IMG/VR virus record: IMGVR_UViG_3300021962_000072
Coordinates: 1 to 64,000 of that record
Length of the DNA: 64,000 nucleotides
Strand: one strand, 5' to 3'
Source of the DNA: an uncultured virus (IMG/VR IMGVR_UViG_3300021962_000072)
Lineage: Duplodnaviria; Heunggongvirae; Uroviricota; Caudoviricetes
A model generated the notes under the pieces. It saw only the letters and a program-made list of their open reading frames with translations, ran no database searches and had not been told where the DNA came from. The translations under genes and the position numbers were made by a program. Below, in pieces: positions 26,033 to 55,574 of this stretch. The first letter of the stretch is position 1. Every line of letters begins with the position of its first letter.

Positions 26033-26072
26033 AGAAATATTTATGTGCTACTATAATGATGTAAATACGTTT

Positions 26073-32991: not shown

Positions 32992-34400
32992 TATTCTATG
33001 AATTTTAATTCTGGGAAGAAAGTAGAAAACTTTGTATTTCTTACTTTATCTAACTCTGCGAGATATTCTTTTAATGCTGGTAACAAATGACTGTTGTCTG
33101 CCGAATCCATAAATTCTAGTACAGCTTGCCAGCGGCGCCAACCATAAGGATTCTTTTTCCAAAAGTCTTCATCCTGTCTGTAATTTTCGTGTAACCAGGT
33201 TGCAAATTCTGCAAATGATTTTCTTACTTCTGCTTTATCTTCTTGCGGTAAACATCTAATATCTAAAAATGTAGGTATGTAAAGCAGATGCATATTAAAG
33301 ATACCGCCACCTGCTTGTATTCCGCCCGTGACATTTTCAAAATTTATCTTTTTAAAGTTCTGTTTTATCTTCCATCGAGCAAAGTCTGGCAGATGTTTGA
33401 TGTTTAGTATCTGTATAGCTGTGGCTATACTGACTTGTATATTGTCTGGGGTGTTATCTAACCTGTGCAAGTTCTTTTCGATAACTGACCAATCGCTAGG
33501 ATATCTTATGTAATAATTTTTATCACCATAAGCATCTATGCTAAATCCTACTTTAACTTTTTTAAATTTTGTCCATAGATCAATGATCTCTTCATTTACT
33601 AATAATCCGTTTGTGTTGTATCTGATTAGGATCTTATCCGCATATCCTTGACTGATTATTTCTTCTAAAAACTTTTTGTGTTCTTTTATTAGTAAAGGTT
33701 CCCCGCCTGCAAAGTAAACTTGTTTTAGATTAGGAATCTGTTTATACATTTCTTTCCAGAAGTCTGGATTTTCGTGCCAATAATTGTTGAACTCCTTTTG
33801 GTCCCAACTCATTTGACTCTTCAATGCATCGTGTTTGAATAACGGATAGACTTTTTTATGATCTGCTACCCACAAACTCGAATCGTGTGGACTGCACATA
33901 ACACATTTTAAGTTACAGGTATGGCCTAATCTAAGATCTAGATAGACTAACTTCTCCGGCACAGTGCCATCTTGAGCAGTCTGTTCTACTAACTCCTCTA
34001 AATCGATTCCGTCCAAAGACCAGGATGCTGTTTCCCAAATGCGCTTGCTGGCTATTCCTTTGCTTTCTTCTTCAAAACATTTACGACAGCTAGCAGGAAT
34101 TTCATTGCGCAGCATCGTTGTTCTAACCGAACGCATGTATTCGTTATTCCAGGCGCTCATAGGAGTTTCTCTACCGAAGTTAGCAGGTCGTCCTGTTTCG
34201 TTTTTTACTAATCCTACTATATGATCTTCGCCAGCACCAGAGGCATTTGACGAACAACATAATCTCATGTCGCCATTTGGTCTAGTTGCAAAGTGTATCC
34301 AGGGCAATGCACAAAAAGTATTGCTGCCGGTCATCGATGCTATTTTATTTTGCCAATGGCCTAGCTCAGTATCTTGAGGTTTAATCCAAAATTCTTCCAT
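32991..34400 (-). CDS. Radical SAM protein with N-terminal twitch-like domain
   Basis: CALPW...CC...CRKC; CNLKCVMC; GGEP. Confidence 0.9.
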   Translation of the reverse strand: MEEFWIKPQDTELGHWQNKIASMTGSNTFCALPWIHFATRPNGDMRLCCSSNASGAGEDHIVGLVKNETGRPANFGRETPMSAWNNEYMRSVRTTMLRNEIPASCRKCFEEESKGIASKRIWETASWSLDGIDLEELVEQTAQDGTVPEKLVYLDLRLGHTCNLKCVMCSPHDSSLWVADHKKVYPLFKHDALKSQMSWDQKEFNNYWHENPDFWKEMYKQIPNLKQVYFAGGEPLLIKEHKKFLEEIISQGYADKILIRYNTNGLLVNEEIIDLWTKFKKVKVGFSIDAYGDKNYYIRYPSDWSVIEKNLHRLDNTPDNIQVSIATAIQILNIKHLPDFARWKIKQNFKKINFENVTGGIQAGGGIFNMHLLYIPTFLDIRCLPQEDKAEVRKSFAEFATWLHENYRQDEDFWKKNPYGWRRWQAVLEFMDSADNSHLLPALKEYLAELDKVRNTKFSTFFPELKFIE

Positions 34401-34999
34401 TAGATCACCCTAGGTCCGTTTGCTATAAACGTAGCACAGATCCATTTCTCGCCTTTGGTTATTACTGTTGACTCGTGTACGCCAGACTGATTAATTGATT
34501 CATCTGGATAGTCATATTCTAGCCAAGCCATTGAACCTTTTTTAGGCTTTATCGAAAAACCTAATACAGGAAAACTAAGTTCTCCACCTTCATAATCATC
34601 ATTCAAATAGAATATAGCAGTATGCTTTCGATCTCCGCCCTTTTCATAATATTTGATCTTCCTTGGTTCTAAAGGAAAATCTACGTGTAGATCAAAAAAC
34701 TGACCTTGATCGTATCTATAAATGTCTCCAGCTTCAATATGACTTCGAGGTACTCCTGTGACTTGGGTTATTATGGCCCAAAAGTGTTCTCTGATTTCTT
34801 GTGGCGTATCCCAACTTATGTTACGTTGTTCAATTCCTTCGTGTACTTGTCCGTCTGACTGCTGATAGGATTCCCACCCTGCTCTAGGATTCATTCCGTC
34901 TTTATTAAACTTGTCAATGATATAATCACAGTATTCGTGATCAACAACATCTTCGTAGACGGCAACTAAAGGCATTTCTGAATATACTATTTTGTTCAT
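34400..34999 (-). CDS. Prolyl 4-hydroxylase-like 2OG-Fe(II) oxygenase
   Basis: HVD, YLNDDYEGGE, HES...GEKW. Confidence 0.85.
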   Translation of the reverse strand: MNKIVYSEMPLVAVYEDVVDHEYCDYIIDKFNKDGMNPRAGWESYQQSDGQVHEGIEQRNISWDTPQEIREHFWAIITQVTGVPRSHIEAGDIYRYDQGQFFDLHVDFPLEPRKIKYYEKGGDRKHTAIFYLNDDYEGGELSFPVLGFSIKPKKGSMAWLEYDYPDESINQSGVHESTVITKGEKWICATFIANGPRVI

Positions 35000-36144
35000 A
35001 AATCTATCTGTGGATATAATTTTTGTAAATCTATTTGTTTAACTTGCTTCTTTGATTTGTAAGATTTCATAAAATCATACAACTCCGGGTTTACTTCTTT
35101 TAAAAATTCTTGTCTTAGCTTATCAATTGAATTACTATAAAAAATAAATTCATCGAAGTACTCAGTATCTTCGTTGTTTAAAAATTTAAGAACTTCCGGA
35201 TATGGTTCAACTGAAGATCTTATTTTATTTTTATACTCGGCGGGCAAAGAACTTATTCTTAAAAATTCCGGATAGAATAAAAATTTCTTCTCTAACCCAA
35301 ACTCAGGAAATTCTTTCTTAATAAATGAATCTAAGTCTTGTAACTTATTAACATTGTATATATTCACAAGAGTCGACACGCCGATAAAAGTACTTTCGGG
35401 AGGTCTTGATTTCATTAAAGACCGCAAGAAATTTAGTGTGTTAACAATATCATCAAAGTTTGACTTTCCTCTAATGTATTCATTCAATCCGCCGTATGCA
35501 TCTATGCTAACAAACAAATCAAGATACCTACATTTTTCAAACGCTTCTAAAATGTATCCTGAAGGTGTGACCATTCCGTTAGTGTATGTAGAGATTACAA
35601 CTTGAGATATTTCTCCGGAGGTCGTAAAGTCTTTAAAAAATTCTTGAGCTCTAGGACTTATTAACGGTTCACCGCCCCAAAATTTAATTTCTTTTAAATG
35701 TGTCTTATCTATTTCATTATGTCTTGTTGTTAAGATAAACTTTTTAGGATTGATTGTCTTACCTAATACTTCTATTTCATCTTCATACAACATATGACTA
35801 TTAGTAGATGCACACATTCTACATTTTAAATTACACAAGTTATCAAACTGCATTTGAATTGCGTGGATCTCAACATTATCAACATATCCGTATCGGTTAA
35901 TACTTCTTTGCCTCATAGATTCTACACCGGCAGCTTCTTCGTTATAACATTGGTCGCAGCCTTTAACAGGTTGGCCGGACAACAATTGATTCCTGAACTG
36001 TTCTAACACTCCTGTGTTAAAAGACTGATCGAAGGAATCTTTTATAAAAACTTTATAAGCGTGATTTTGACAACAGGGCTGTAAAATGTCACCGTTGAAT
36101 AGAACTACTTCCCTAAAGGGCAAAGGACAATACTTGGAAGTCAT
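34996..36144 (-). CDS. Radical SAM protein with N-terminal twitch-like domain
   Basis: CPLPF...PCC...CDQC; CNLKCRMC; GGEP. Confidence 0.9.
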   Translation of the reverse strand: MTSKYCPLPFREVVLFNGDILQPCCQNHAYKVFIKDSFDQSFNTGVLEQFRNQLLSGQPVKGCDQCYNEEAAGVESMRQRSINRYGYVDNVEIHAIQMQFDNLCNLKCRMCASTNSHMLYEDEIEVLGKTINPKKFILTTRHNEIDKTHLKEIKFWGGEPLISPRAQEFFKDFTTSGEISQVVISTYTNGMVTPSGYILEAFEKCRYLDLFVSIDAYGGLNEYIRGKSNFDDIVNTLNFLRSLMKSRPPESTFIGVSTLVNIYNVNKLQDLDSFIKKEFPEFGLEKKFLFYPEFLRISSLPAEYKNKIRSSVEPYPEVLKFLNNEDTEYFDEFIFYSNSIDKLRQEFLKEVNPELYDFMKSYKSKKQVKQIDLQKLYPQIDL

Positions 36145-36959
36145 TAATAAAAATCCAAATGATCTATGTTTATAATTTTTCTAAATTCTTTACTAAACTT
36201 ACAATCTATTCTTAGTCCGTATTCTTGTTCTAAACTGTGTTCTCCACCGTGCCAATCTTGGTCGTTCCAGAAAGCGGCATGTGAGTTTACATAGTGTTTG
36301 TCTTGTGTGTCTGGATCCCAAATATAGAACCCACGTTTGGTACGATAACGTATGTGTATAAACTCATTGTTATGAGGAGTATAGTAGTCGTTTTCAAACA
36401 CACCATTCTTAGCATCTAAGTCTCTGTGCTCAAAAGCCTTACCGTTATGGTCGCAATGAAAGAATATCACACGTCCAATACGATCTATCACACCGTGTGC
36501 CTGCAAACTTTTTACCCAACTTACTACGCCCGGAAAGAATCGACTTTCTTCTGTTAGCTGACGTTCAGCATTGCGTTCATTCCAGTCGCCTTCATTCCAT
36601 AGGAAATAATATACGTAAGGATCATTAGCACCCAACACACTCTTAAGATAACGTGTGAATAAATTGCGCTGTTTATAATCTTTAAAGTCTGTAGGATAGA
36701 TTTCTTTTCCCTGCACCTTAATAGGATGATCATCGGGTAGTTTCTGATATTCTTCAAACGCTTTGTAGATTGGTTTCCAATCGATAACATAACTACCTCT
36801 GCTTTGATCAAAGCCAGGTGCCATCCAAGTTCCTTCCTTGGCATAATCTCTAGCCAAAGCAAAACCTTTACAGATCTCAGCGTGTAGATCTATAAATCCT
36901 TTTACATCCAAAAACGGATCTAAGTTAATGTAGGGCTTACCGCCAATACCTCTAATCAT
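36144..36959 (-). CDS. Probable 2OG-Fe(II)/cupin-fold oxygenase
   Basis: EHRD...WHGG...LRID pattern. Confidence 0.55.
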   Translation of the reverse strand: MIRGIGGKPYINLDPFLDVKGFIDLHAEICKGFALARDYAKEGTWMAPGFDQSRGSYVIDWKPIYKAFEEYQKLPDDHPIKVQGKEIYPTDFKDYKQRNLFTRYLKSVLGANDPYVYYFLWNEGDWNERNAERQLTEESRFFPGVVSWVKSLQAHGVIDRIGRVIFFHCDHNGKAFEHRDLDAKNGVFENDYYTPHNNEFIHIRYRTKRGFYIWDPDTQDKHYVNSHAAFWNDQDWHGGEHSLEQEYGLRIDCKFSKEFRKIINIDHLDFY

Positions 36960-36986
36960 AGCAATACTTAGCTGATAAGTATTTGC

Positions 36987-37682
36987 ATGAATACGGATTA
37001 CGAATATTACTACAATGATGTTCCTGGCAAAGGCCTTTGCCGAAATAATTTAATCTACACAAGCCTTATAAGCAAAGACCGTAAAACATTTTGCCAATGG
37101 TATCATAACGATACTGAATATCATCGAGGACAAAATCAAGTCGTAGATTCTTCTTTAATGGAAGAAAAATGGTTGCGTGAAGTAAATTATATTACACAGA
37201 TGCGTAATTCGTTTCCGGACTTGGTACCAAAGATACTTAATATAGATCTAGACAAAAGAAAAATCTATCTAGAAATCGACGGTTATGATTTTTGGCAACA
37301 GGCAGGGACTGTAGAACAAAATTATGACAGCGTTCTTCCTGATTGGAAAGAACAGATGCTTGACATATTTAGAGCACATAGACAATTAGGAATCTATAAG
37401 TATAGTCTACACCCTAGTAGTTACTTTGTAATTAATGGAAAATTAAAAAGCATCAATTATTTCTTTTGTTACAAAGATCACGAAGCTCCGATCACGATTA
37501 ACAGTGTGTTGAGCCACATCAGTGAAGATAGACAAAAGGATCTCTATTTAAAAATAGATAAACTAGGACTGTCAGTCGATAGCCCTGTTCCGTTTATTGA
37601 TTTACAGATGCTGGCATTTGATAGTTTTAAAAATAATTTTCCAGACGATTTAATGGAACAAGCCAAAAACATATACAAATAA
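36987..37682 (+). CDS. Protein-kinase-like fold protein with a degenerate catalytic loop
   Basis: REV...VPKIL.ID..KRKIYLE; GIYKYSLHPSSYF; KSINYF; paralog of 41335-42012. Confidence 0.45.
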   Translation: MNTDYEYYYNDVPGKGLCRNNLIYTSLISKDRKTFCQWYHNDTEYHRGQNQVVDSSLMEEKWLREVNYITQMRNSFPDLVPKILNIDLDKRKIYLEIDGYDFWQQAGTVEQNYDSVLPDWKEQMLDIFRAHRQLGIYKYSLHPSSYFVINGKLKSINYFFCYKDHEAPITINSVLSHISEDRQKDLYLKIDKLGLSVDSPVPFIDLQMLAFDSFKNNFPDDLMEQAKNIYK

Positions 37683-37683
37683 A

Positions 37684-38673
37684 ATGATATTCAAACCATA
37701 TTTAAAAATGTTAGACATCTACTACGGTGCAAGATGTAATTTGTTTTGCAACCAATGTGACACTCGTAGTGATACTATCAGAGATACAACTAACGATCCT
37801 GACCTTGAAACTATATTCGAGGGGATTCGATTAGCAAGAGAAAAGTTTGAAATCGAACTTTACAGCATGATTGGTGGCGAACCCTTGTATTACCTTGATA
37901 AAATAGATGCTATCCTTTCATACATAAGGTCTCTTGATCCGGATACTCCAATACAGTTCTCTACAAACGGAACATTATTGTCTAAAAGAATAAATGAAGT
38001 TTCTGAATTACTAAGAAAACATAAATGCAGTCTATTTGTGTGCAATCATTTTTCATCATTTGATGCATCGATGTCAGAGAAAATATCAAACAGCGTTGAC
38101 GAATTAGTAAATCAGTTAGGTCTGAAACCCGGTGATGCTAACAAATTCTTGTACGACTTTATGAAATTAGACAATCCTAGAAACGATCCGTTCTTTGCTA
38201 AGTGGATTGATATTAATAAAGATTACAGCCAGGGAGAACAACCCAACGATCTTTACTATCACGACAACGAAATATTTGTACACTTTAGACCGCAAGGAGA
38301 ATTTAAAAAGAATCATTATATGAAAGATGGTAAACCTAAACCATTTCAAACAGGACTACCACATCTTTCGTATAAGCAAGGATGTAGTAGTCCTATGTGC
38401 AGTTTTCTAATAGACAAGAAAATATATAAATGTGCTGCACTTGGCACACTAAAAAGATTGTTAGAATTTCATAATAGTCTAGATGATCCGGACTGGAAAA
38501 AGTATCTCGATTACAATTATCTAGATTTAGAAAACTGCACAGACGGCGATGTGATGAAATTTCATTTAAGTAAATTTTGTGCCATTGCAGAATGTGATAT
38601 GTGCGGAACCAAATATTTTAATAGATCCAAGGAAGATGTTACCAATGTACAAGTTATTAGAATGGACCTCTGA
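37684..38673 (+). CDS. Radical SAM protein
   Basis: CNLFCNQC, GGEP and TNG. Confidence 0.9.
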   Translation: MIFKPYLKMLDIYYGARCNLFCNQCDTRSDTIRDTTNDPDLETIFEGIRLAREKFEIELYSMIGGEPLYYLDKIDAILSYIRSLDPDTPIQFSTNGTLLSKRINEVSELLRKHKCSLFVCNHFSSFDASMSEKISNSVDELVNQLGLKPGDANKFLYDFMKLDNPRNDPFFAKWIDINKDYSQGEQPNDLYYHDNEIFVHFRPQGEFKKNHYMKDGKPKPFQTGLPHLSYKQGCSSPMCSFLIDKKIYKCAALGTLKRLLEFHNSLDDPDWKKYLDYNYLDLENCTDGDVMKFHLSKFCAIAECDMCGTKYFNRSKEDVTNVQVIRMDL

Positions 38674-39199
38674 TCTAGATCTAACTGACTTTTATAATAA
38701 AGCTGACCAAAAAGGTTTTTACAATAACAGTAATCAACAAAGAATGATAGACTGTTTTAAAAACGAGAGAGATTGGAAAGCTTGGATACTCTACGAAAAT
38801 GATCAAGCAGTGGGTAGTGTAGTCTCTCACACTTTTGATGATGTAATGGGTACGGGTAGTTACAGAGTGTTGGCGAGATGCTGTGTACTAACAGGTGCTA
38901 GATCAAACGGTGGAATGATGACTGCTCGAGTGGCAATAGGTCAACATCAAAACATCACCGATCAATTCTTCCTACCTGCTTGCATTGAGTGGGCTGGAGA
39001 TAATATCTATGCAACCTCTAATGAAAGTATTGTTGCTAGCCAAAGATTTGTACACAGAACTTACTTCCCTACTCTTGAAAAACTAGGAATCGTTGAAAAA
39101 GTTAAAGATGTATTTTATAGAGGAACTGATCAAACTGTTTGGAAAATAAAAGTTGATAAGTTCTATGAAAATTTAAATCGTTATCCTAGATGGATCTAA
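38645..39199 (+). CDS. Hypothetical protein (possibly GNAT-like)
   Basis: ORF overlaps the upstream stop; the fold guess rests only on strand/helix pattern. Confidence 0.5.
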   Translation: MYKLLEWTSDLDLTDFYNKADQKGFYNNSNQQRMIDCFKNERDWKAWILYENDQAVGSVVSHTFDDVMGTGSYRVLARCCVLTGARSNGGMMTARVAIGQHQNITDQFFLPACIEWAGDNIYATSNESIVASQRFVHRTYFPTLEKLGIVEKVKDVFYRGTDQTVWKIKVDKFYENLNRYPRWI

Positions 39200-39799
39200 A
39201 TTTGGATTAATCCTGTATAGCTGCTCCCTTAGATAAGGAGTCAGCTTCCATCTAAATTCCATTTGTCTTACAACGGGATGTCTAGTCCAGAACACAATCG
39301 ACTCTATTATATCGTCGTGGCTAGTGGTATAATCACTAACAAACGCAGCAGGATCATTGTCAACTGTTGTGCCTTCGATAAAACTAAGATCTAAATGCAG
39401 TATAGGTATTCCGTTTGGATCTAAACTTATCAATCTACATTCTTCTGCTAACTCTTGCTTGTCTTTCACATATTGCGTAGGTATAATTTCTGGATAAAAT
39501 CTACTGACACTGCCCATAACTACCATAGAATCAACTTTATTCTTTAGTGCTTGTAGCAACTTTAACTGCTGTCCGTCCCTGTAGGCATTGTTAATAAACA
39601 ACTCACAACCAGACGCTTCTTCGACCACTCGATCAAAATCTTTATCAATGTCGTATCCATTACTGCGAGACAACCCTACAATTTCTCTACAGCTATCTTG
39701 CTTGAGAGCATCATATATAGATTTGCCAATGCCGCTGGTGTGACCAGTTATAACTATCCTCTTACTCAATTCTTTTCTCCGTGAATAAACGATACACAA
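39173..39799 (-). CDS. Short-chain dehydrogenase/reductase-like protein
   Basis: ITGHTSGIG, NNA and YVKDK (YxxxK); true start probably TTG near 39769. Confidence 0.8.
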   Translation of the reverse strand: MCIVYSRRKELSKRIVITGHTSGIGKSIYDALKQDSCREIVGLSRSNGYDIDKDFDRVVEEASGCELFINNAYRDGQQLKLLQALKNKVDSMVVMGSVSRFYPEIIPTQYVKDKQELAEECRLISLDPNGIPILHLDLSFIEGTTVDNDPAAFVSDYTTSHDDIIESIVFWTRHPVVRQMEFRWKLTPYLREQLYRINPNLDPSRITI

Positions 39800-40221
39800 G
39801 TTACTGTTGGATTAGCAAGCCAAAAATCAATAACTTTACCTATTGTTTCTGGATCATTATAACTTGCACCTGTTAGTTCTAATAACAATATATTTCTGTC
39901 ACTTGTATTCGCTACTTCTAATACACGTTGTTTTAATTCTTTTTTATTCTGACTATATTCAGGCATACTAGGATCGGGATAGTCTGCGGCTACGCTACCC
40001 ATTACTACTATATTTTTAATTCTAGAGTGTAATTCATTAAAAAGATCTATTTGCAATTTTCCGCCGTAAGCATTATTAATAAACAAATTACAACCTACTG
40101 CCGAAGTAACGATATCATCACCTCGATTTAATCCAATAACAAAATATCCCTTCTTGGTAAAATATTCTTTTAAAAATTTACCAAGTCCTCTAGTTGTACC
40201 TGTAATACAAACTTTAAACAT
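39766..40221 (-). CDS. Short SDR-like protein
   Basis: ITGTTRGLG, NNA and YSQNK. Confidence 0.75.
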   Translation of the reverse strand: MFKVCITGTTRGLGKFLKEYFTKKGYFVIGLNRGDDIVTSAVGCNLFINNAYGGKLQIDLFNELHSRIKNIVVMGSVAADYPDPSMPEYSQNKKELKQRVLEVANTSDRNILLLELTGASYNDPETIGKVIDFWLANPTVTCVSFIHGEKN

Positions 40222-40224
40222 ACA

Positions 40225-40770
40225 TCACCACAAATTCAAAATATATTTAGGTTCTAGTCCGCAGTTAGATCCGGCGTGCCAGTATCTCCTATCTGCCCAT
40301 TTAAATGTATCGCCTTGCGCTTTGTTATAGAAGCATTGATCTTCTACTATAAAAACGTGTCCGAACTTTGGTTTTGATATATGACAATGATATCGGACCA
40401 TAGGAGGTAACTTAGATAATTGTTCTTCCTGATCGTTTACATCCCAATGTATAGGAGCAAAGTGTCCAACATCTATCCTACTGATCCAGGCAGTGCGATA
40501 AGTTTCAATATTGTAAAATCCACAAAACTTATCAATCACTGAAGAATCAAATTGCTTACCTGGAAGATACATACTCCATCCAACGGTGCCGCCTTCATTT
40601 AGATTTTTGTATCCGGCATGGTCCCATAAGTCCGAGACTTCTTTAAGACCAGGAATGTCATCACTTTTCTTATGACTAGGTCCTATGTATTCCGGAGCAG
40701 TCGATGCACACTGTTTTATTATTTCATCCCAATCTATTATCTGAGAACAGTTTCCTATGTATTCTATCAT
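40225..40770 (-). CDS. 2OG-Fe(II) oxygenase/cupin-like protein
   Basis: HWD...WHAGSNCG. Confidence 0.7.
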   Translation of the reverse strand: MIEYIGNCSQIIDWDEIIKQCASTAPEYIGPSHKKSDDIPGLKEVSDLWDHAGYKNLNEGGTVGWSMYLPGKQFDSSVIDKFCGFYNIETYRTAWISRIDVGHFAPIHWDVNDQEEQLSKLPPMVRYHCHISKPKFGHVFIVEDQCFYNKAQGDTFKWADRRYWHAGSNCGLEPKYILNLW

Positions 40771-41342
40771 CTAGGTTTTCCTAAAAAATGAAATAGGTAA
40801 TAGGGCTCTGAACCACAATTAGTTCCAGCATGCCAATTCCTATAGTTGTCCCATTCCCATACATCGTGTTGTTTGGTATTATAAAAAATATCATTTTCAA
40901 TTATCAACACATGACCAAATTGAGGCTTCTCCATAAAGCAAACGTAACGAACTAGATCGCCTTCGGCTAACCATTCTTTCTCTTTGTCTTCTACATCCCA
41001 GTGGTATGGAACACATCGGCCTGGCCATAGTTCGCTAACAAATACCCTTCTTGGATCTGCATTGACTAGATCTGCAAATTTATTTTGTACCTCTATATCA
41101 AAATGAGTTCCTGGATAGTAATCGTACCACTGTATTTTTTCTAAGGCATATCCAGCATCGGTCCAAATTTTTATAACTTCTCTATAAGACCCTAACAGAT
41201 CCTGATCCTCCTGCCAGCTAGATTCAGATCTATCAACTACTGTGGTTACAGAATTAAAGTCACCATCATTCCTGGACTTGCATATTTTTACAATGCTTCC
41301 CCAGTCTATTAAATTTTCAGTGGAACCTACATACTTAGGCAT
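40767..41342 (-). CDS. 2OG-Fe(II) oxygenase/cupin-like protein, paralog of 40225-40770
   Basis: HWD...WHAGTNCG. Confidence 0.7.
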   Translation of the reverse strand: MPKYVGSTENLIDWGSIVKICKSRNDGDFNSVTTVVDRSESSWQEDQDLLGSYREVIKIWTDAGYALEKIQWYDYYPGTHFDIEVQNKFADLVNADPRRVFVSELWPGRCVPYHWDVEDKEKEWLAEGDLVRYVCFMEKPQFGHVLIIENDIFYNTKQHDVWEWDNYRNWHAGTNCGSEPYYLFHFLGKPR

Positions 41343-42012
41343 TGAAGAGATCCTTATAAATGAAACTCATGTTTTCTTCTCCCCAGAGGACGTGAGATCT
41401 TAAACTATTCTTGAACATGATTTCAAGATTGTATCTATGGTCGATCTGATCTCCTGTTTCGTCTAATCTAAATTTAGCTGTCTCGTGTATGATTCCGTCC
41501 ATGTAAACAGCTTCTACAAAAGGGTCTGATACAGGAACACATCCGTACCAATCAATCGCCCTCATGTTATTTTGATCATCGATGTAATGGCAGTGCGGAT
41601 ACATCGTGAGTTTGTATACACCATCTCGGTATTGATCTTTAATTATGTCTTTTATCTGTTGTTTCCAAATATCTTTAGGCCAAAACTTCCCACCATACAT
41701 AATTTGATTACAGGTTTCGTTATACCATTTGATGTAGATCTTTTTATTTTTTAAATCTATGTCAACAACTTCTGGAGCATATGGTTTATTTTTAAAAAAT
41801 TCTAACCATTTGATTTCGTTATTAAAAAACCAATCAACTACTTCTCTAGTATACAAAGGTCTCGGGTATCCTGTTAATTTTTGGTATTCGTTATCCTGAT
41901 CGTAGTTTTTACAAAAAGTTTTGCCATCCTCGCTAACTAACGGTTCATAGGTCTGCTGGGCCATACAGCGATTGCCCTGCTCATCTAATTTAAAGTATTG
42001 ATTCCAAATCAT
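41335..42012 (-). CDS. Protein-kinase-like fold protein
   Basis: NEI...APEVVDID; GVYKLTMYPHCHY; RAIDWYG (DFG-like). Confidence 0.45.
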   Translation of the reverse strand: MIWNQYFKLDEQGNRCMAQQTYEPLVSEDGKTFCKNYDQDNEYQKLTGYPRPLYTREVVDWFFNNEIKWLEFFKNKPYAPEVVDIDLKNKKIYIKWYNETCNQIMYGGKFWPKDIWKQQIKDIIKDQYRDGVYKLTMYPHCHYIDDQNNMRAIDWYGCVPVSDPFVEAVYMDGIIHETAKFRLDETGDQIDHRYNLEIMFKNSLRSHVLWGEENMSFIYKDLFNA

Positions 42013-42983
42013 TGTATTCTTTTTGGTATTTTACTGTCTGCTGAACTTACACAAGTTTCTGTTACACAGACCTTAGGTTCTTTAAAAATTTGGAAATCCT
42101 CCAAAGTTCCTAAGGGTTCTTCTTTGCAACTGTAAGCACGTTTTACTTCATTTCCTCTGATCACTAGACTTTGATACCCGCTGTTGCAGGTCCAATTTTT
42201 AAATTTATTAAATCCAAAAGCATTAAATCTTTCTGCTTGATCAAAGTAATAATCTGTTGTTCCGTTGTTTAAACGGATTTGATATACATTTTCATCTTCA
42301 GATCTTTGGGGAAATCCTGTTTGCATAATCTTTATCATTTCGTCAGTGTACCCTTCTACTACACGGCTAGCAGTAGGATCACTTTGGGGTTTCAATGTGA
42401 CGTTGATACCTTTCCTGTGGAATCGATCGCAGCGTTCATACAGCTCATAGAATCGATCAGGCACCATTACTTGATTGATAGTTACATGCACACGCTCATA
42501 CATTAGTTGCAAACACTTGTCTCCAAACTCTTGCTCTTTGGCAAACTCCTCGTGAAAGCTGGCTGTGATGCTTCTTCTTTGTAATAAACAAGTATTACTA
42601 CACCAGGTGTTCCACCATTTGCTTCCCGGACTAAGATTAGTAGTCATATGCACACTTTGATAGGAACTTTCCTTCTCGTCCAAATACTTGACTAAGTCAT
42701 TTAGATGTTTATAAGCAGTTGGCTCGCCGCCGCTGAAGCTCCAATGGAACTCTGTGAATCCGTTCGAACGGGCTTGACTTTTAATTTGATCAATTGTATT
42801 CTTATACACATCAAGTGATTGGTAGTCTTGTTGATCGCTTCTGGCGTAGGGCCAACAGTAGCTACATTTGTAATTGCAGAACCTGCCCAGTATCCAACTT
42901 ATGTTGAACAGTGGACGATCTAACATTGTTTGTTGACCAAACGATTTTATAGACTGCCAAGAAATTTTTTCGTAATTCATCAT
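42009..42983 (-). CDS. Radical SAM protein
   Basis: CNYKCSYC and GGEP. Confidence 0.9.
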   Translation of the reverse strand: MMNYEKISWQSIKSFGQQTMLDRPLFNISWILGRFCNYKCSYCWPYARSDQQDYQSLDVYKNTIDQIKSQARSNGFTEFHWSFSGGEPTAYKHLNDLVKYLDEKESSYQSVHMTTNLSPGSKWWNTWCSNTCLLQRRSITASFHEEFAKEQEFGDKCLQLMYERVHVTINQVMVPDRFYELYERCDRFHRKGINVTLKPQSDPTASRVVEGYTDEMIKIMQTGFPQRSEDENVYQIRLNNGTTDYYFDQAERFNAFGFNKFKNWTCNSGYQSLVIRGNEVKRAYSCKEEPLGTLEDFQIFKEPKVCVTETCVSSADSKIPKRIQ

Positions 42984-43065
42984 CCAGTGTATTTACAGAA
43001 CATAAATAACTGTGTACAATATTTAGAATGTTGTAAAAATACCACATTATAGTGTACTTTTTAGA

Positions 43066-43094
43066 TTGACAACTAAATAAAGTTACATTATAAT
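43066..43094 (+). promoter_or_regulatory. Sigma70-type promoter P1
   Basis: TTGACA-17-TATAAT. Confidence 0.8.
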
Positions 43095-43127
43095 TTTTGC
43101 AATGGTTAGGAAGAATGCCAAAATAGG

Positions 43128-43156
43128 TTGACAAGCTTCTTAACAGTTGTTATAGT
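43128..43156 (+). promoter_or_regulatory. Sigma70-type promoter P2
   Basis: TTGACA-17-TATAGT. Confidence 0.8.
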
Positions 43157-43195
43157 AAGAACATCGCTGGAAACAGCACAAGGAAAGAAAAGCAA

Positions 43196-43339
43196 ATGAA
43201 ACAATTATCGTTACATAGACAAGCGAAACAGATAGCCCAGTTGGGAGGCTTTATGCCCTCATATTGGTCTGTATGTGAGATTAGTCTATCTAATGATCGT
43301 ACACCAGAATCGGGGTCCTCGGAGGATCGTGTAGCGTAA
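43196..43339 (+). CDS. Putative attenuator leader peptide, 47 aa (MKQLSLHRQAKQIAQLGGFMPSYWSVCEISLSNDRTPESGSSEDRVA)
   Basis: AAGGA upstream; all 20 amino acids occur by codon 36; the 3' end overlaps the antiterminator strand. Confidence 0.65.
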   Translation: MKQLSLHRQAKQIAQLGGFMPSYWSVCEISLSNDRTPESGSSEDRVA

Positions 43340-43369
43340 ACAAAACTACACAAACTTCAAAAGGACCCC
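43312..43369 (+). promoter_or_regulatory. Antiterminator hairpin
   Basis: Nested helices GGGGTCCT/AGGACCCC, GGAG/CTTC and GTGTAG/CTACAC enclose the leader stop codon. Confidence 0.7.
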
Positions 43370-43397
43370 AGGATTAAAAACCCTGGGGTTTTTGTTT
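43365..43397 (+). terminator. Rho-independent terminator, mutually exclusive with the antiterminator
   Basis: ACCCCAGG-loop-CCTGGGGT followed by TTTTGTTT. Confidence 0.85.
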
Positions 43398-43411
43398 GCC
43401 GAAAGGAACAG

Positions 43412-43570
43412 ATGGAATTTGAGATAGATGACGATTACAAAGTTGAGCACAGTGAAGGATTTGTTTTAACTGAAGAACAATTTAAGAAATTAATTGAATC
43501 TAAAGTGAAAAGAAACACATTTTTTTACTCGTTAGACAAAGTGCGGGAACGTAAGGAAGACCTTTCGTAG
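43412..43570 (+). CDS. 52-aa hypothetical protein (MEFEIDDDYK...), not in the ORF track
   Basis: AAAGGA RBS; first ORF past the attenuator; TAG stop. Confidence 0.55.
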   Translation: MEFEIDDDYKVEHSEGFVLTEEQFKKLIESKVKRNTFFYSLDKVRERKEDLS

Positions 43571-43577
43571 AACGCGA

Positions 43578-43804
43578 AGTGTGATAGGGAACGCGACCCT
43601 GCAGGGCACTATAAAAATCTTGCTACTAATGTGGGCGGCCTACCGGATGGTAAGTCTAGGGCGACAACCTAGATGCGTAAAATGGTAGCGTATTAAAGTG
43701 TTCTATCGACCTCTGAACAAGGCGGCGCATAGCGTACATAGAGCACTTTAATACACACTCTTCATTCAGCCCCTGACGCTGTCTAAAACCATAGGGAAGA
43801 GTGT
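43578..43804 (+). ncRNA. Unknown structured RNA(s)
   Basis: 17-bp stem 43690-43706/43738-43754; 9-bp stem 43755-43763/43796-43804; GCTACTA/TGGTAGC and TCTAGG/CCTAGA helices. Confidence 0.5.
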
Positions 43805-43818
43805 TTAACCAAAAAGTA

Positions 43819-43846
43819 TTGACAAGTAAAATAACTTGTATATAAT
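43819..43846 (+). promoter_or_regulatory. Sigma70-type promoter upstream of the large ncRNA
   Basis: TTGACA-16-TATAAT. Confidence 0.7.
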
Positions 43847-43852
43847 AGAGAC

Positions 43853-44740
43853 TTAGGGCAGTTTATTGTCCTGTAGCGTATGGTTCGCCCAGCGTTACGA
43901 AGAATAACTGTGGTGACACAGCCAAAGCTAGAATGCCTACATACTAGCGCCAGCAATGGTTCACGTAAACAAGCCTGCTCACTACCGCGAGGTAGCGTTC
44001 ACTGATAAGACCGGTGGATGTAACTGTGAAGCAAGTGTTAGGGAAAGAATGTGCGTCGACAGGCCGTAAGGAACCTGGGCGTATGAAAAGTAACAGGTGG
44101 TGCTGACTTCCTAACAAAACCAACTTGCGAACAGGTATGAGAAAGGGTAGTGCATTGGTTCGAGATGTTGCAGTCAAGAGCTCGTGTGCAATGTTAATGG
44201 TTAGTGGACTGTTTTGATGCAGGACACCGATCGTGAAACATCACTGAGTAGTCCGCAAGACAAAAGGTATGTGGTGAGTTGTATTCAGTAGTCCAAAAGA
44301 TTATTGAGCAACAGAGGTAGCTCATCACGGTAGGTTCGATATAGCTCATTCGGTAGAGCATCTGTATGTTAAACAGACGGCAGTTGGTTCGATTCCAACT
44401 ATCAACACAAAAATGCAAAGACTGCCTCGGTCATACGTGAAAAGCATCTAATGCTTGACACGCAAGTGAATCAAGCCTAGTAAAGCTCGCAAGGTGATAC
44501 TAGTTTGTATTGGAAGTTTCGTAAAGTGTTAGCGCACTTGAATGGCTCGCAAGGTCAACGGGATAGATGATACAGAATAGCGTATGACGACAAGACTACT
44601 GCCTGTCTTTAAAAACGGCGATGCTGGTAGCAGACATAGGTACCGCAAGGGCTTATGTGGATGTCGAGAGAAGCTGTGCTCGCAAGGTGCAGTATAATGC
44701 TCGAGGTGTTACTGGTTAAAGTGTAATCTCAGCTTTAACA
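43853..44740 (+). ncRNA. Large structured ncRNA, GOLLD-like
   Basis: ~0.9 kb with no credible ORF; six CGCAAG (GNRA) capped hairpins plus GCGA/GTAA loops; embedded tRNA; terminal hairpin GTTAAAGT/GCTTTAAC; adjacent to a phage tRNA array. Family assignment is from size and context only. Confidence 0.6.
44334..44407 (+). tRNA. tRNA-Asn(GTT)-like element embedded in the large ncRNA; imperfect acceptor stem, no CCA
   Basis: TAGCTCATTCGGTAGAGC D arm; TCTGT-ATGTTAA-ACAGA; GTTGG-TTCGATT-CCAAC. Confidence 0.65.
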
Positions 44741-44827
44741 CTATTCTAAAACATATTGGCCACAGCCTAGACGCATAGAAATAGGATGCATAGCATATTG
44801 TCGTCAGTGTATTTCAGAATAGTTTTT

Positions 44828-44912
44828 GGATGTGTAGGAAAATTGGTAACCCCAGTGGACTGTAAATCCGCCGCCTCTGGCACTGCTGGTTCGACTCCAG
44901 CCGCATCCACCA
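44828..44912 (+). tRNA. tRNA-Tyr(GTA)
   Basis: Cloverleaf, long variable arm, CCA. Confidence 0.9.
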
Positions 44913-47830: not shown

Positions 47831-47929
47831 GCCTCCGTAGCTTAATGGTAAAGAAGCGAGCTTATACCTCGCCAAAGCACAGGCCAGATAAGCCTGAGTG
47901 TGCAGGTTCGAGTCCTGCCGGAGGCACCA
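47831..47929 (+). tRNA. tRNA with TAT anticodon (Ile AUA) and a ~29-nt variable arm
   Basis: GCCTCCG/CGGAGGC-A-CCA; GCGAG-CTTATAC-CTCGC; variable arm CAGGC/GCCTG. Confidence 0.8.
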
Positions 47930-47969
47930 ATTTATTATAGAAAACTATTTTTCTATAATATATACAAAT

Positions 47970-49574
47970 ATGAAAATAAAAAATATAGTTATAGTCGGTG
48001 GCGGCACTTCTGGCTGGTTTACAGCAGGAGCTCTTTCAAAAGTCTATGATCAATTTAATATCACTTTGATAGAGTCTCCGGATATTCCAAAGATTGGAGT
48101 AGGAGAAAGTGTTACACCGCACGTACAAGGATTTTTTGATTTTCTAGAAATTGACACAAAGCACTGGATGAATGAAACTGGTGCTGTTTATAAATTAGCT
48201 AACAAGTTCACTGGATGGATCACTGGGGATCAAAATGAATCCGAATATTTTGGATTTTCGTATCCTTCCGCAGCAGAGTTGCTGTACAGAGAAACTTCAG
48301 AATTAGTCAGCTACAACGATTTAAAATATCCAGAGAGTACTGTTAAAACAACAGATGTATTTTCTCAACTGTTGTTAGATGGTTCCATAGACAAGTTTGA
48401 TAGGTATTGGAGTAGTGCATATCATTACATGGAGAAAAACGTTTCTCCGTTTTTAAATGACAAGTATCTACTTAATCAGTTTTACAGCTGGAGTCAACAC
48501 ATCAACGCAGATAAATGCGGAGACTATGTAAGAGATTTTATTGCATTACCGAACGGTGTGAAACATATTTCTAAAAAAGTCATAGAAGTAAAATGTGAAC
48601 AGGATAAAATATCATCCGTTGTTTTAGAAGATGGAGAAGTTGTTACAGCTGATTTGTTTGTTGATGCTTCTGGTTTCGCGAGACTGTTAGTCAAAGCACT
48701 AAACTGGAATGTGATTCCCTACAAAGATTATGCCATCGATACTGCTGTAGTTGCACAATTAGAATATAACGACATACAAAAAGAGTTAGTAAATTACACA
48801 CAATCGATAGCACAACCCAACGGATGGATGTTTAAGATCGGTTTATATCATAGGATGGGATGTGGACTTTGTTTTAGTTCTAGTCACTTAGATGTTGAAC
48901 AGGCTATAGACGAGTACAAAAAACTAAATTCTAATAGAAGATTAGAACCCAGAGTGCTATCCTGGAAACCTGCTAGATTAGAACAATTTGCCAATGGTAA
49001 CGTAGCCACTGTAGGACTGTGTTCTGGTTTCTACGAACCATTAGAAGCAAATGCGTTATACATTTTGATCAGTGGAATATACGAATTGATCAACAGTTTA
49101 GACGGATATAAAAAAACTGGAAACTTAGATTGGTCCAATTACAATAAGAAACTGGCATACACCATTGACGATCTAACAGATTTTATAAAGATACATTACA
49201 CTCTTAGTAAGAGAACTGACACTGACTTTTGGAACGACATGCGATCGATCGGCGACAAAGAACGTCACGAAGATTTGATTTTTCAAAAGTATAGCGATGG
49301 AAGAAATTCCATAACCAATGCTAAAGACCATTGGACATTATTTGCAGAATATATGTGGTTGCAGTTAGCGGCTTCTTGGAAATTAGATTTATCTAAATTT
49401 AAGAAAGATTCGATAACTAAAAATCAGTTGAACTTAGGACGTCATTATTTTACTTCGAGAGAAGTAAAGCACGATTTAATCAGCGATGACTTACCTAATA
49501 ATTATGAATGGTTAAAAGAAAATATATTCCAGGATGTAGATTATAAAACCTGGGAAAGAAAGTATCTCAAGTGA
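47970..49574 (+). CDS. Flavin-dependent halogenase (tryptophan halogenase family)
   Basis: VGGGTSGW, IGVGESV, DLFVDASGF, GWMFKI and FYEPLEA. Confidence 0.85.
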   Translation: MKIKNIVIVGGGTSGWFTAGALSKVYDQFNITLIESPDIPKIGVGESVTPHVQGFFDFLEIDTKHWMNETGAVYKLANKFTGWITGDQNESEYFGFSYPSAAELLYRETSELVSYNDLKYPESTVKTTDVFSQLLLDGSIDKFDRYWSSAYHYMEKNVSPFLNDKYLLNQFYSWSQHINADKCGDYVRDFIALPNGVKHISKKVIEVKCEQDKISSVVLEDGEVVTADLFVDASGFARLLVKALNWNVIPYKDYAIDTAVVAQLEYNDIQKELVNYTQSIAQPNGWMFKIGLYHRMGCGLCFSSSHLDVEQAIDEYKKLNSNRRLEPRVLSWKPARLEQFANGNVATVGLCSGFYEPLEANALYILISGIYELINSLDGYKKTGNLDWSNYNKKLAYTIDDLTDFIKIHYTLSKRTDTDFWNDMRSIGDKERHEDLIFQKYSDGRNSITNAKDHWTLFAEYMWLQLAASWKLDLSKFKKDSITKNQLNLGRHYFTSREVKHDLISDDLPNNYEWLKENIFQDVDYKTWERKYLK

Positions 49575-50701: not shown

Positions 50702-50777
50702 TCCCCGGTAGCTCAGCGGTAGTAGCAGTTGACTGTTAATCAATTGGTCGGAAGTTCGATCCTTCCCCGGGGAGCCA
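50702..50777 (+). tRNA. tRNA-Asn(GTT)
   Basis: Loop CTGTTAA. Confidence 0.9.
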
Positions 50778-54077: not shown

Positions 54078-54256
54078 ACACAGACAGAATTAAGATAGAC
54101 TACATCGGTAATAAGATCAAATGGCAACAGGATTTGAGATTTCAAAAATCCGTTGCCTATGATTACCTAAATAATGAGATTATCGTAGAGGAGTGCATCA
54201 ATAACTTTGATCAGGCCAACGATATCATTAATAAAATTAAGAAGAATTTAAAATGA
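54074..54256 (+). CDS. Hypothetical protein
   Basis: ATGA overlap. Confidence 0.55.
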   Translation: MNTDRIKIDYIGNKIKWQQDLRFQKSVAYDYLNNEIIVEECINNFDQANDIINKIKKNLK

Positions 54257-54816: not shown

Positions 54817-55007
54817 TGTACTTACATAGAGATGATATCAAAAGAATGATGGAAATTTTTGAAAAGTTTCCAGATGTAGAGGTAGCAGAAATTACTCAGG
54901 ATAATAGTTCTGGTATTGGCAGTCATACGACTATGACCATAGAGACAAAAGTCAATGATCAAACTGGGAGGTTTGAAGTTGTAGTTTCTAGTGTGGAGAA
55001 TTGGTAA
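54816..55007 (+). CDS. Hypothetical protein
   Basis: 63 aa, GGAG RBS. Confidence 0.65.
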   Translation: MYLHRDDIKRMMEIFEKFPDVEVAEITQDNSSGIGSHTTMTIETKVNDQTGRFEVVVSSVENW

Positions 55008-55016
55008 TAGAATAAA

Positions 55017-55565: not shown

Positions 55566-55574
55566 GGAGATGTT

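Follow-up and report, generated by a model that had tools for sequence, protein, structure and literature searches.

A GOLLD RNA carrying a tRNA-shaped linker module at the head of a phage tRNA island

The GOLLD gene and its surroundings

The window analyzed here comprises the first 64,000 nucleotides of a 78-kb virus record in IMG/VR, which CheckV rates as 22% complete. Positions 43853-44737 are the gene of a GOLLD RNA (RF02032), which heads the tRNA island of an uncultured jumbo phage and spans ~885 nt from its predicted start (Table 1). In a whole-window Rfam scan, 44271-44735 matched the GOLLD model with 225.6 bits (gathering score 150; E = 1.3e-62); the match is full-length and not truncated (model positions 1-416), and it is the sole one in the source record. 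A preliminary description, made from the sequence alone, had called the RNA GOLLD-like. It proved to be a GOLLD outright, with the tRNA inside the model's unpaired linker, and among the large-RNA models that the description had named, ROOL (RF03087) was absent from the 33 matches of the whole-window scan at gathering threshold. The description had also tied its reading to covariation, which is plentiful: of the 133 pairs in the RNAalifold consensus of 18 sequences, 109 show compensatory changes.

Table 1. Features of the GOLLD locus, in window coordinates.
Feature	Position	Strand	Basis or remark
sigma-70-type promoter, TTGACA-16-TATAAT	43819-43846	+	12/12 consensus matches
GOLLD 5' domain, subclass-specific type	43853-44270	+	many covarying helices (RNAalifold, 18 sequences)
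5'-domain covarying helices (examples)	43908-43912/43917-43921; 43927-43931/43944-43948; 43973-43976/44145-44148	+	
Further 5'-domain covarying helices	44150-44154/44185-44189; 44158-44166/44173-44181; 44191-44194/44238-44241	+	
CCUAC, 5'-domain hairpin loop	43936-43940	+	pairs with GUAGG 44330-44334
Hairpin, Rfam GOLLD model positions 1-62	44271-44330	+	Rfam alignment, RNAalifold
Outer helix of the model 1-62 hairpin	44273-44279/44322-44330	+	inner hairpin 44278-44312
GAGGUAG, 5' strand of the pseudoknot closing the tRNA-bearing loop	44314-44320	+	partner 44422-44428
GUAGG linker motif, abutting tRNA position 1	44330-44334	+	pairs with 43936-43940
tRNA-Asn(GUU)-shaped module in the GOLLD linker	44335-44407	+	Rfam tRNA, 56.1 bits
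GOLLD 3' domain	44408-44737	+	Rfam model to position 416; holds 5/6 CGCAAG loops
CUGCCUC, 3' strand of the loop-closing pseudoknot helix	44422-44428	+	RNAalifold
Terminal GUGUAAUCUCAGC hairpin, invariant end of the 3' domain	44717-44737	+	Rfam alignment, RNAalifold
Long hairpin then UUUUU, abutting tRNA-Tyr	44740-44827	+	terminator-like or processing spacer
tRNA-Tyr	44828-44912	+	first gene; downstream array of 29 further tRNAs (to 53823)
Canonical tRNA-Asn(GUU) of the array	50702-50777	+	7/7 acceptor pairs, C32, GCCA

The stretch had been described as free of ORFs and is at least ORF-poor, the longest ORFs overlapping 43853-44740 reaching 77, 74 and 57 aa (minus strand) and 41 aa (plus strand). 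The six CGCAAG motifs reported as hairpin caps are all present on the plus strand (44254, 44461, 44488, 44548, 44644 and 44681), and five of them form hairpin loops in the Rfam alignment. These six lie within 433 nt; both strands of the whole window hold 27 (shuffle mean 16.6). Covariation supports the helices of the conserved 3' domain. The terminal GUGUAAUCUCAGC is invariant in 18/18 aligned sequences, but 13 of the 17 relatives had been collected with a pattern that included it, and the remaining four with its 14-base core. A search with the 14-mer AGTGTAATCTCAGC returned 116 stretches, only four of which were GOLLD relatives by nhmmer and the rest chance-like; a two-motif pattern therefore replaced it for collecting relatives.

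The promoter that had been ascribed to the RNA was recovered with a perfect match to consensus and predicts a start near 43853; in the alignment, a -35/-10 pair occupies the same place in the relatives L063, L191 and L135. Upstream, region 42950-43900 gave only a chance-level miRNA model (E = 0.16) when compared with Rfam at E up to 1. Downstream, the spacer hairpin at 44740-44827 has a minimum free energy (MFE) of -22.2 kcal/mol (z = -2.57; 3/200 shuffles fold as well), and its arms change together in the alignment with L063, from ACAUA/UAUGU to ACACA/UGUGU. No promoter-like site was found between 44740 and 44828. The window contains 30 stand-alone tRNA genes, and the array begins 91 nt downstream of the GOLLD RNA. 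Stop-codon recoding behind a tRNA(CUA) at 9885 was considered and set aside with no sign of it, since total ORF length gains less from treating TAG as sense than from treating TGA or TAA that way.

To place the RNA among its relatives, we used viral loci selected by the 3'-end motif. Among the matches listed, 82 loci had at least 950 nt upstream of this motif, and 22 of these fell into a long-hairpin class. A profile of the 5' domain matched 20/22 long-hairpin-class loci and 0/60 other GOLLD-motif loci, again among the matches listed, with 18 of the 20 matched loci having been in the training alignment of that domain. ARAGORN called a linker tRNA in at least 17 loci (15 distinct), to which L125 adds one found by eye. 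Subclass members L124 and L189 have a linker without a tRNA, and L152 retains only an anticodon-arm-like hairpin. In cellular genomes, 76 loci among the matches listed, defined by the motif and not individually confirmed by the Rfam model, had at least 900 nt upstream; they included two linker tRNAs and three 5' domains of the same type. A blastn search of 43700-44800 against 50,697 phage records returned four partial matches, none covering at least 80% of the query: two were the 3' core in Xanthomonas phages and two were ordinary tRNA-Asn genes of Serratia phages. At blastn sensitivity, no cultured phage with this type of GOLLD was found among these records. Judged by sequence comparison, the RNA thus falls into a GOLLD subclass, new here, that is set apart by its 5' domain and bears a tRNA module in the linker.

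A clamped cloverleaf with an open acceptor top

The module in the linker scores within the range of the array tRNAs (36.5-74.6 bits, Rfam tRNA) and was called by ARAGORN at 44335-44408 with anticodon GTT. Both programs recognize a cloverleaf, whose D loop contains GG and whose T loop is normal. As the preliminary description had noted, the element has a GTT anticodon, A32 and no CCA: its anticodon loop is AUGUUAA (A32, U33, A37), and its 3' tail is AC followed by AAAAAUG. The acceptor stem forms 5/7 pairs, with mismatches at 1-72 (U/C) and 3-70 (C/A) in the ARAGORN structure. That description had started the element at G44334 with a bulged acceptor stem. Seven pairs around a bulged C can be drawn for that register, but a covarying long-range helix includes G44334. 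Folded in isolation, the module forms no acceptor stem at its MFE; this fold is unexceptional (z = -1.71; 12/200 shuffles fold as well) and uninformative either way.

Against the 30 stand-alone tRNAs of the window, the module stands apart. Seven acceptor pairs are formed in 27/30 and six in 3/30, 29/30 end in CCA, and position 32 is C or U in 30/30. Among all 31 window tRNAs, only the embedded module has just five acceptor pairs, only it has A32, and only it and tRNA-His are without terminal CCA. The intact tRNA-Asn reported beforehand at 50702 is indeed there, complete in acceptor stem and tail, and would make the embedded module redundant as a decoder. The two share the anticodon and the D-loop and T-loop consensus, but their bodies are only 56% identical. 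The module's nearest relatives are other embedded modules: UUA of L166 (73%), UUA of L191 (70%) and UUU of L141 (69%).

Two predicted helices hold the module. On its 5' side, GUAGG pairs with a hairpin loop of the 5' domain in 97.8% of 90 cells, with 3/5 pairs changing on both sides; 0/500 shuffles reach this score, and slid controls give 25-51%. GUAGG is retained in 18/18 aligned sequences, including those without a tRNA. A free single-stranded 5' leader for RNase P was therefore not found at 44330-44334, the bases in question being part of this covarying helix. On the 3' side, 14 bases after the module's end, comes the pseudoknot helix that closes the tRNA-bearing loop. It too covaries among the 18 sequences, one of its pairs being AU in 10, GC in 6, CG in 1 and GU in 1. 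The tRNA module is thus clamped, as covariation predicts, at both ends.

We compared 16 distinct modules, 15 of whose contigs hold array tRNAs; the sequences are related, and the counts that follow are not independent events. Covariation extends over the D, anticodon and T stems and the lower part of the acceptor stem, with 93.6% of 297 cells paired and 17/19 pairs changing on both sides (0/500 shuffles reach the score; slid controls 34-46%). The upper acceptor stem behaves differently: pair 3-70 is formed in only 5/11 modules, and the embedded modules have five acceptor pairs in seven cases, six in seven and seven in one, compared with seven in 109 and six in 17 for other tRNAs of the same loci. 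Relative to the array tRNAs of the same contigs, seven acceptor pairs occur in 1/16 modules vs 271/303 (p = 5e-13), an encoded CCA in 0/16 vs 294/303 (p = 5e-21), and a purine at position 32 in 6/16 vs 4/303. Three modules are without U33 (the defects include C33 and G33), and one has an 8-nt anticodon loop. The module nevertheless persists at the same site across GOLLDs that are only ~60% alike. Overall, the linker modules of the subclass maintain a tRNA cloverleaf under selection, consistently without a closed acceptor top or an encoded CCA and often with odd anticodon loops.

The anticodons are far less constant. GUU, UCU, UUU, UUG, CCA, UGG, UGA, CUA, UUA and GAUA were all found, and the modules of L029 and L051 have identical bodies that differ by a single anticodon base. 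Diversity at positions 34-36 is 0.53-0.68, like that of the variable loop (0.53), while the flanking positions 33 and 37 have 0.24 and 0.23, and the T loop (0.20) and D loop (0.29) are the least variable parts of the module. A twin with the same anticodon was found in the array of the same contig for 8/15 modules vs 8/278 non-CAT array tRNAs (p = 6e-8). In the other 7/15 contigs the embedded anticodon is missing from the fetched array, an observation equally compatible with a decoder and with independence. Cases of the latter kind are the UCU of L063 and the UUA of L191, which is present only in the GOLLD of a complete 214-kb phage. Across the modules compared, the anticodon seems to change freely, stop-codon readers included, regardless of the phage's own tRNA set.

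Cargo, cutting signal, relic or fixed domain

Contigs of four RNA libraries, from four studies, lie on 43840-44763; these runs had been selected because they contain the sequence, and many contigs come from relatives. Contigs run unbroken across the 5' junction of the tRNA in three runs, each from a different study (X7, 43997-44376, and X18, 44256-44381, both with 0 differences; X8, 44256-44403, with 2), and the 3' junction is crossed by one relative-grade contig (X7, 44368-44612). Loose contig ends at 44407-44409 can be read as the 3' domain joined to T arms from other embedded tRNAs. The contigs give neither strand, ends nor level, and RNA libraries may contain DNA, so part of the pool may be processed. 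In all four pre-chosen runs, where an uncovered part proves nothing, summed word depth reaches hundreds to thousands across 43840-44680 and does not exceed ~30 on either flank; depth was set aside as a measure of expression or of ends, because the runs were pre-chosen and the flanks of relatives differ. Joints from 44024 to 44134 and from 44431 to 44540 were also rejected, each being a single low-depth contig with sides below 30 nt; such joints within GOLLD are probably cross-matches between CGCAAG hairpins or relatives.

The anticodon is a main identity element of Asn, Lys, Arg and Gln tRNAs, so point shifts of the anticodon could yield working tRNAs. CCA can be added after transcription, and working phage tRNAs with mismatched acceptor stems occur. 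The module itself is a good tRNA by covariance score, with U33, A37 and both loops intact. These points speak against tethering, and the last of them also suits an explanation that we regard as unlikely but worth weighing, in which a real tRNA-Asn is held inactive in a cage and later released by RNase P, trimmed at its 3' end and given CCA. Such "inhibited storage" is stated in the available text of PMC12990946, and tRNAs as covalently linked cargo are proposed in the accessible part of 10.1101/2024.12.08.627333. Cloverleaf covariation, as selection on tRNA shape, would suit stored tRNAs, as would the seven embedded anticodons absent from the array, and timed release would make sense for stop-codon readers that occur only in GOLLD (L166, L191). 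The same modules, however, are without encoded CCA and, with a single exception, without a full acceptor stem. Five leader bases are locked in a covarying helix, the same phage has a canonical tRNA-Asn, and same-anticodon twins are far more frequent than within arrays. The three modules without U33 and the six with purine 32 are likewise unfavorable, as are the RNA contigs that cross the junctions. In the portion of PMC6582537 available, M. aubagnense likewise has a pseudo-tRNA inside GOLLD, and a Northern blot revealed no separate, free tRNA.

Two further explanations were weighed. Punctuation by tRNA shapes is a known processing signal, and the module could be a handle that only recruits RNase P and 3' nucleases, the cut 5' and 3' GOLLD halves then assembling non-covalently. 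The 3' domain of a Streptococcus GOLLD self-assembles alone, according to the available text of PMC12990946, and many other GOLLD loci have a tRNA starting 8-21 nt past the 3' motif, where RNase P probably makes the GOLLD 3' ends. The closed acceptor stem and free leader that RNase P reads best are nevertheless both missing here, L124 and L189 do without a linker tRNA and L152 with only a hairpin, the 5' junction is bridged by contigs of three studies, and anticodon-loop features kept around changing triplets are left unexplained; we consider such a handle highly improbable. The module could instead descend from a tRNA gene that landed in a tolerant linker and decays neutrally, with no role. 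In the accessible part of 10.1101/2024.12.08.627333 the GOLLD linker is both variable and unresolved, the module has been lost or reduced to a fragment in the same three loci, several modules are defective, and anticodon positions are as variable as unconstrained ones. Neutral decay is hard to reconcile with stems maintained by compensatory changes, with T and D loops that vary least, with a module kept in place across GOLLDs of such low identity, and with an acceptor-top defect that follows a constant pattern in place of scattered damage. We therefore hold it to be improbable as well.

Comparative evidence suggests that the module is probably not released as an ordinary decoder but stays in the RNA permanently, as a tRNA-shaped domain. 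The preliminary description had proposed a displayed decoy or a processing handle in place of a decoder. Its denial of an ordinary decoder is favored by the open acceptor top, the missing CCA, the purine at position 32, the array-independent anticodon, the helix-locked leader and the contigs that cross the junctions; a decoy is not separated from other bait or structural roles, and a simple cut-here handle is disfavored. As a whole, we lean towards a promoter-driven GOLLD RNA with a clamped, tethered, tRNA-shaped linker domain. This RNA would be transcribed from its own sigma-70-type promoter. Cryo-EM of GOLLD cages covers a 14-mer of env-38 and a 12-mer of S. agalactiae only, and the linker points inward and sometimes bears a tRNA (PMC12990946 and 10.1101/2024.12.08.627333, in their available text); cages and inward linkers were thus seen in two other GOLLD members, outside this subclass. 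By analogy with these, ~12-14 tRNA-shaped domains would line the interior of a cage.

What such a permanent domain might do is a matter for more tentative proposals. It could be bait, attracting a factor that recognizes both tRNA shape and anticodon, for example an anticodon nuclease of the host or some other protein that binds tRNAs. We rate this below an even chance; it would explain why the shape is kept while the anticodon changes fast. More speculative still, the subclass may have turned a tRNA into a non-releasable, cage-lining domain that acts as a multivalent, anticodon-specific trap or docking site. In such a trap, shape would be conserved while the anticodon turns over rapidly, stop-codon-reading and four-base forms included, and possible targets would be host anticodon nucleases or other tRNA-reading factors inside the RNA nanocage.

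Relation to known RNAs and significance

Two domains, a variable linker and a full model match make this RNA like GOLLD RNAs with a tRNA or pseudo-tRNA in linker J13/15. Like known GOLLDs, it lies in a phage tRNA island with a tRNA at the reported linker site (PMC12990946, 10.1101/2024.12.08.627333 and PMC6582537, as far as their available text goes), and the general statement of the preliminary description, that GOLLD RNAs lie near phage tRNA genes and some embed a tRNA, is borne out by the accessible portions of the first two. Linker placement of a tRNA is therefore already known, and embedded pseudo-tRNAs are not novel to this locus (PMC6582537, available part). Unlike other GOLLDs, the RNA has the 5' domain of the tRNA-bearing subclass, which none of the 60 other loci match, and one extended 3' hairpin. 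The available text of GOLLD papers that mention anticodons does not describe the helix from leader to 5' domain, the uniformly open acceptor top, the missing CCA or the free-running anticodon, part of which older GOLLD papers may cover.

Another ornate phage RNA near tRNA genes is ROOL (RF03087), which forms a cage with a disordered inner linker (10.1101/2024.12.08.627333, accessible part). Its sequence and fold are unrelated, and the window has no ROOL match. In YrlA (a bacterial Y RNA), tmRNA and the 3' tRNA-like ends of plant viruses, a tRNA shape is a fixed domain of a larger RNA, read by tRNA-binding proteins and not a free decoder. Those domains lie at RNA ends or are without an anticodon arm. 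The GOLLD module, unlike them, is internal, a full cloverleaf with a 7-nt anticodon loop, and held at both ends.

The locus is no new kind of RNA, but its subclass offers a sharp and testable contrast. An encoded CCA is present in 97%, and a full acceptor stem in 89%, of the stand-alone tRNAs of the module contigs; the acceptor of the linker tRNA is never finished. The kept shape, unfinished acceptor, two-helix clamp and free anticodon together argue for a working part of the RNA and against cargo awaiting release. Recent structures of GOLLD cages raise the question of what, if anything, sits inside. If the module does act as an anticodon trap, it would provide the first concrete handle on the purpose of GOLLD cages.

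Identity and extent of the GOLLD RNA

The preliminary description had proposed a GOLLD-like giant RNA with its own promoter, and the whole-window Rfam scan bore this out: RF02032 (GOLLD) matched 44271-44735 on the + strand over its full length (model positions 1-416) at 225.6 bits (E 1.3e-62; gathering score 150). It was the sole GOLLD match across the 78,187-base virus record containing the window, whose 22% completeness (CheckV) points to a jumbo phage. Of the 5′ half, the model includes only the final hairpin, which is followed by the linker and the 3′ domain; a perfect promoter places the predicted start near 43853, the left border already suggested, and the conserved 3′ hairpin runs to 44737. 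The stretch holds no ORF longer than 77 aa, in keeping with the ORF-free reading, and the six CGCAAG motifs were all recovered on the + strand within a 433-nt span. The sequence-level features tested for GOLLD membership were all found.

Relatives were collected in two IMG/VR scans. One carries a GOLLD identical letter for letter to the window's (L037), one is about 80% alike (L063) and two are about 60% alike (L051 and L029); the Rfam model scored nine of ten relatives above its cut-off, and the tenth, L179, at 126.5 bits. Consensus folding of the window aligned with 17 relatives gave 133 pairs, 109 of which showed at least one compensatory change; they are distributed across the 5′ region (43853-44270) as well as the 3′ domain. 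A profile of the 5′ region matched 20 of the 22 loci of the extended-3′-hairpin class, 18 of these 20 belonging to its training set, and none of 60 other GOLLD-motif loci, which agrees with the lower conservation of GOLLD 5′ regions described in a published account (10.1101/2024.12.08.627333). On this comparative evidence, the 5′ domain is real and subclass-specific.

Upstream of the promoter, 43066-43800 is ORF-poor and matches no Rfam family; it contains two further near-perfect promoters (43066-43094 and 43128-43156) and an 83-nt hairpin (43683-43765), and in one RNA-library contig 43393 is linked to 43580 through 15 letters of different origin. Further upstream, 24430-42983 is densely packed with 12 radical SAM ORFs in either orientation, an unusual phage cargo; several have SPASM domains, and ORFs matching no family are interleaved with them. 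Three of the 12 (26635-28002, 32991-34400 and 34996-36144) match NF033640 ("twitch domain-containing radical SAM") above cut-off.

Features of the GOLLD gene and RNA-library contigs crossing the tRNA 5′ junction
Feature	Position	Strand	Remark
Sigma-70-type promoter TTGACA-16-TATAAT	43819-43846	+	perfect match
CCUAC	43936-43940	+	5′-domain hairpin loop; pairs with GUAGG
GAGGUAG	44314-44320	+	internal loop of the hairpin preceding the module
GUAGG	44330-44334	+	abuts tRNA position 1; kept in 18 of 18 aligned sequences, tRNA-less ones included
CUGCCUC	44422-44428	+	fourteen bases past the module; pairs with GAGGUAG
Conserved 3′ hairpin of GOLLD	end at 44737	+
Long hairpin and U5	44740-44827	+	downstream of GOLLD; abuts tRNA-Tyr
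Contig, run X7	43997-44376		0 differences
Contig, run X18	44256-44381		0 differences
Contig, run X8	44256-44403		2 differences, 1 gap

A clamped tRNA-shaped module without CCA

The internal tRNA-shaped element lies at 44335-44407 and was correctly described as carrying anticodon GTT, an A at position 32 (loop AUGUUAA) and no CCA, in a genome with a canonical tRNA-Asn(GTT) at 50702. In the acceptor stem just five of seven positions pair; the bulged seven-pair register of the preliminary description needs G44334, which is claimed by the leader helix. Judged as a tRNA-Asn, the module lacks a regular acceptor stem, an encoded CCA and a free 5′ leader, and its anticodon loop is marginal because position 32 is A.

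ARAGORN placed a linker tRNA 320-410 nt upstream of the conserved terminal 3′ motif in 17 loci (15 distinct) and missed one that is present in L125; the linkers of L124 and L189 have none, and all that remains in that of L152 is a hairpin resembling an anticodon arm (UUUGC-CUUUUAA-GCAAA). Across 16 aligned modules, acceptor pairs 4-7 and the stems of the D, anticodon and T arms were paired in 93.6% of 297 cells, a figure lowered by one sequence (L119) lying one column off; at 17 of 19 pairs both partners had changed, no shuffle among 500 equalled the score, and slid controls reached 34-46%. Pair 3-70 formed in just 5 of 11 sequences. In ARAGORN structures, the embedded modules had five (7 cases), six (7 cases) or seven (1 case) acceptor pairs, and other tRNAs of the same loci seven (109 cases) or six (17 cases). 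Compared with the tRNA arrays of the surrounding contigs, modules differed in encoded CCA (0/16 versus 294/303, p 5e-21), seven acceptor pairs (1/16 versus 271/303, p 5e-13) and purine at position 32 (6/16 versus 4/303), counts drawn from related sequences rather than independent events. U33 is absent from three modules, and the anticodon loop of one is eight bases long; two more linker tRNAs, from bacterial genome bins, have five and six acceptor pairs and no CCA.

The GUAGG/CCUAC leader helix was paired in 97.8% of 90 cells, with both-side changes at three of five pairs and variants GGGG/CCCC (L179), GUGGG/CCCAC (L152) and GUAGA/UCUAC (L119); none of 500 shuffles equalled its score, and slid controls reached 25-51%. 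The GAGGUAG/CUGCCUC helix also covaries in the consensus fold. The leader needed by RNase P would therefore sit within a helix and, as the 91-nt loop that bears the tRNA is closed at its base, the module is predicted to be clamped at both ends.

Six RNA-library runs matched part of the stretch, and contigs of four, from four studies, were placed on it; those of three runs crossed the tRNA 5′ junction. The 3′ junction was crossed by one contig about 91% alike (X7, 44368-44612), and a second, exact-grade contig ended 27 nt past it, an overlap below counting length. Loose contig ends at 44407-44409 look like T arms from different tRNAs running into the 3′ domain, so RNA-library contigs of relatives also show the tRNA joined to the 3′ domain. 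Neither RNA ends nor strand or level can be read from the contigs, and the libraries may include DNA; with this proviso, an unprocessed GOLLD-tRNA form probably exists, beside which part of the pool may be processed. In a report on M. aubagnense GOLLD, the internal pseudo-tRNA gave no separate Northern signal (PMC6582537). In other GOLLD classes (e.g. L120, L121, L126, L159 and L178), a tRNA gene begins 8-21 nt past the 3′ motif, so RNase P processing of that tRNA probably generates the GOLLD 3′ end in these classes.

Turnover of the embedded anticodon

The modules carry GUU, UCU, UUU, UUG, CCA, UGG, UGA, CUA, UUA and a four-base GAUA. The window's module is nearest to other embedded modules (L166, UUA, 73%; L191, UUA, 70%; L141, UUU, 69%) and shares just 56% identity with the stand-alone tRNA-Asn of its phage, which argues that it came down with GOLLD and was not recently copied from an array gene. 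The modules of L029 (UGG) and L051 (UGA) match throughout except for one anticodon base, and the body that bears the UGA has a short variable arm. At positions 34-36, pairwise diversity (0.53-0.68) resembled that of the variable loop (0.53); it was low at positions 33 (0.24) and 37 (0.23) and in the T loop (0.20).

The embedded anticodon also occurred on a stand-alone tRNA in 8 of 15 contigs, against same-anticodon twins for 8 of 278 non-CAT tRNAs within arrays (p 6e-8), so it seems unrelated to the set of tRNAs with which the phage decodes. The seven non-redundant contigs fit a decoder role equally well: UCU in L063, and UUA in the complete 214-kb genome L191, were found only in GOLLD.

The GAUA lies in the eight-base loop of L179, and three distinct linkers carry stop-codon readers (L154, L166 and L191; CUA once, UUA twice). 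The window itself encodes a stand-alone amber reader (anticodon CUA, ARAGORN "Pyl") at 9885-9959, with seven of seven acceptor pairs and ACCA; ORF lengths gave no sign of TAG as sense, TAG terminating just 8 of 66 long frames.

Possible roles of the module

Linker tRNAs and pseudo-tRNAs, placed as in the window, are already in print (PMC12990946; 10.1101/2024.12.08.627333; PMC6582537). The combination of open acceptor top, absent CCA, clamping helices and anticodon turnover is a subclass-wide pattern, which we did not find in those examined papers that mention both "GOLLD" and "anticodon".

The GOLLD gene, with its own promoter, heads a tRNA island; a promoter scan found no promoter-like site between GOLLD and tRNA-Tyr, so the array is probably transcribed by read-through from the GOLLD promoter. 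Within the array, between tRNA-Val and tRNA-Ser, lies a 558-aa tryptophan halogenase family ORF (47898-49574; PF04820, E 8e-89). Just past the array, 54253-57614 encodes a dual-specificity phosphatase-like protein, a metallophosphoesterase and a T4 RnlA-type RNA ligase (PF09511; TIGR02308 below cut-off), which together could repair tRNAs in defense against anticodon nucleases. The cultured 199-kb Xanthomonas phage BUDD (ON758385.1, L252 1416-1843) also has a GOLLD (181.9 bits) mid-array; it is unannotated, as is the stretch around it, and its linker contains no tRNA.

We favor, with some confidence, the module as a permanent non-decoding domain of GOLLD RNA. Slow release of a real tRNA from GOLLD, for which the non-redundant anticodons and partial processing leave room and to which the missing CCA and enclosed leader are unfavorable, seems unlikely. 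A neutral relic could account for the tRNA-less linkers; given the covariation of the cloverleaf, we judge it improbable. Least probable is a tRNA shape serving as a cut-here handle: although RNase P probably cuts behind GOLLD in other classes, here contigs run across the 5′ junction.

By cryo-EM, other GOLLD members assemble into cages of 12 or 14 copies whose linkers face inward (PMC12990946; 10.1101/2024.12.08.627333). By analogy, a dozen or so tRNA-shaped domains would line the cage interior, each held by two helices with its anticodon loop presented, and would be unable to act as standard RNase P or synthetase substrates. Selection on the shape, combined with free change of the triplet, suggests that a partner recognizes both tRNA shape and anticodon; tentatively, the permanent domain may serve as bait to capture an anticodon nuclease or another factor that reads tRNAs.
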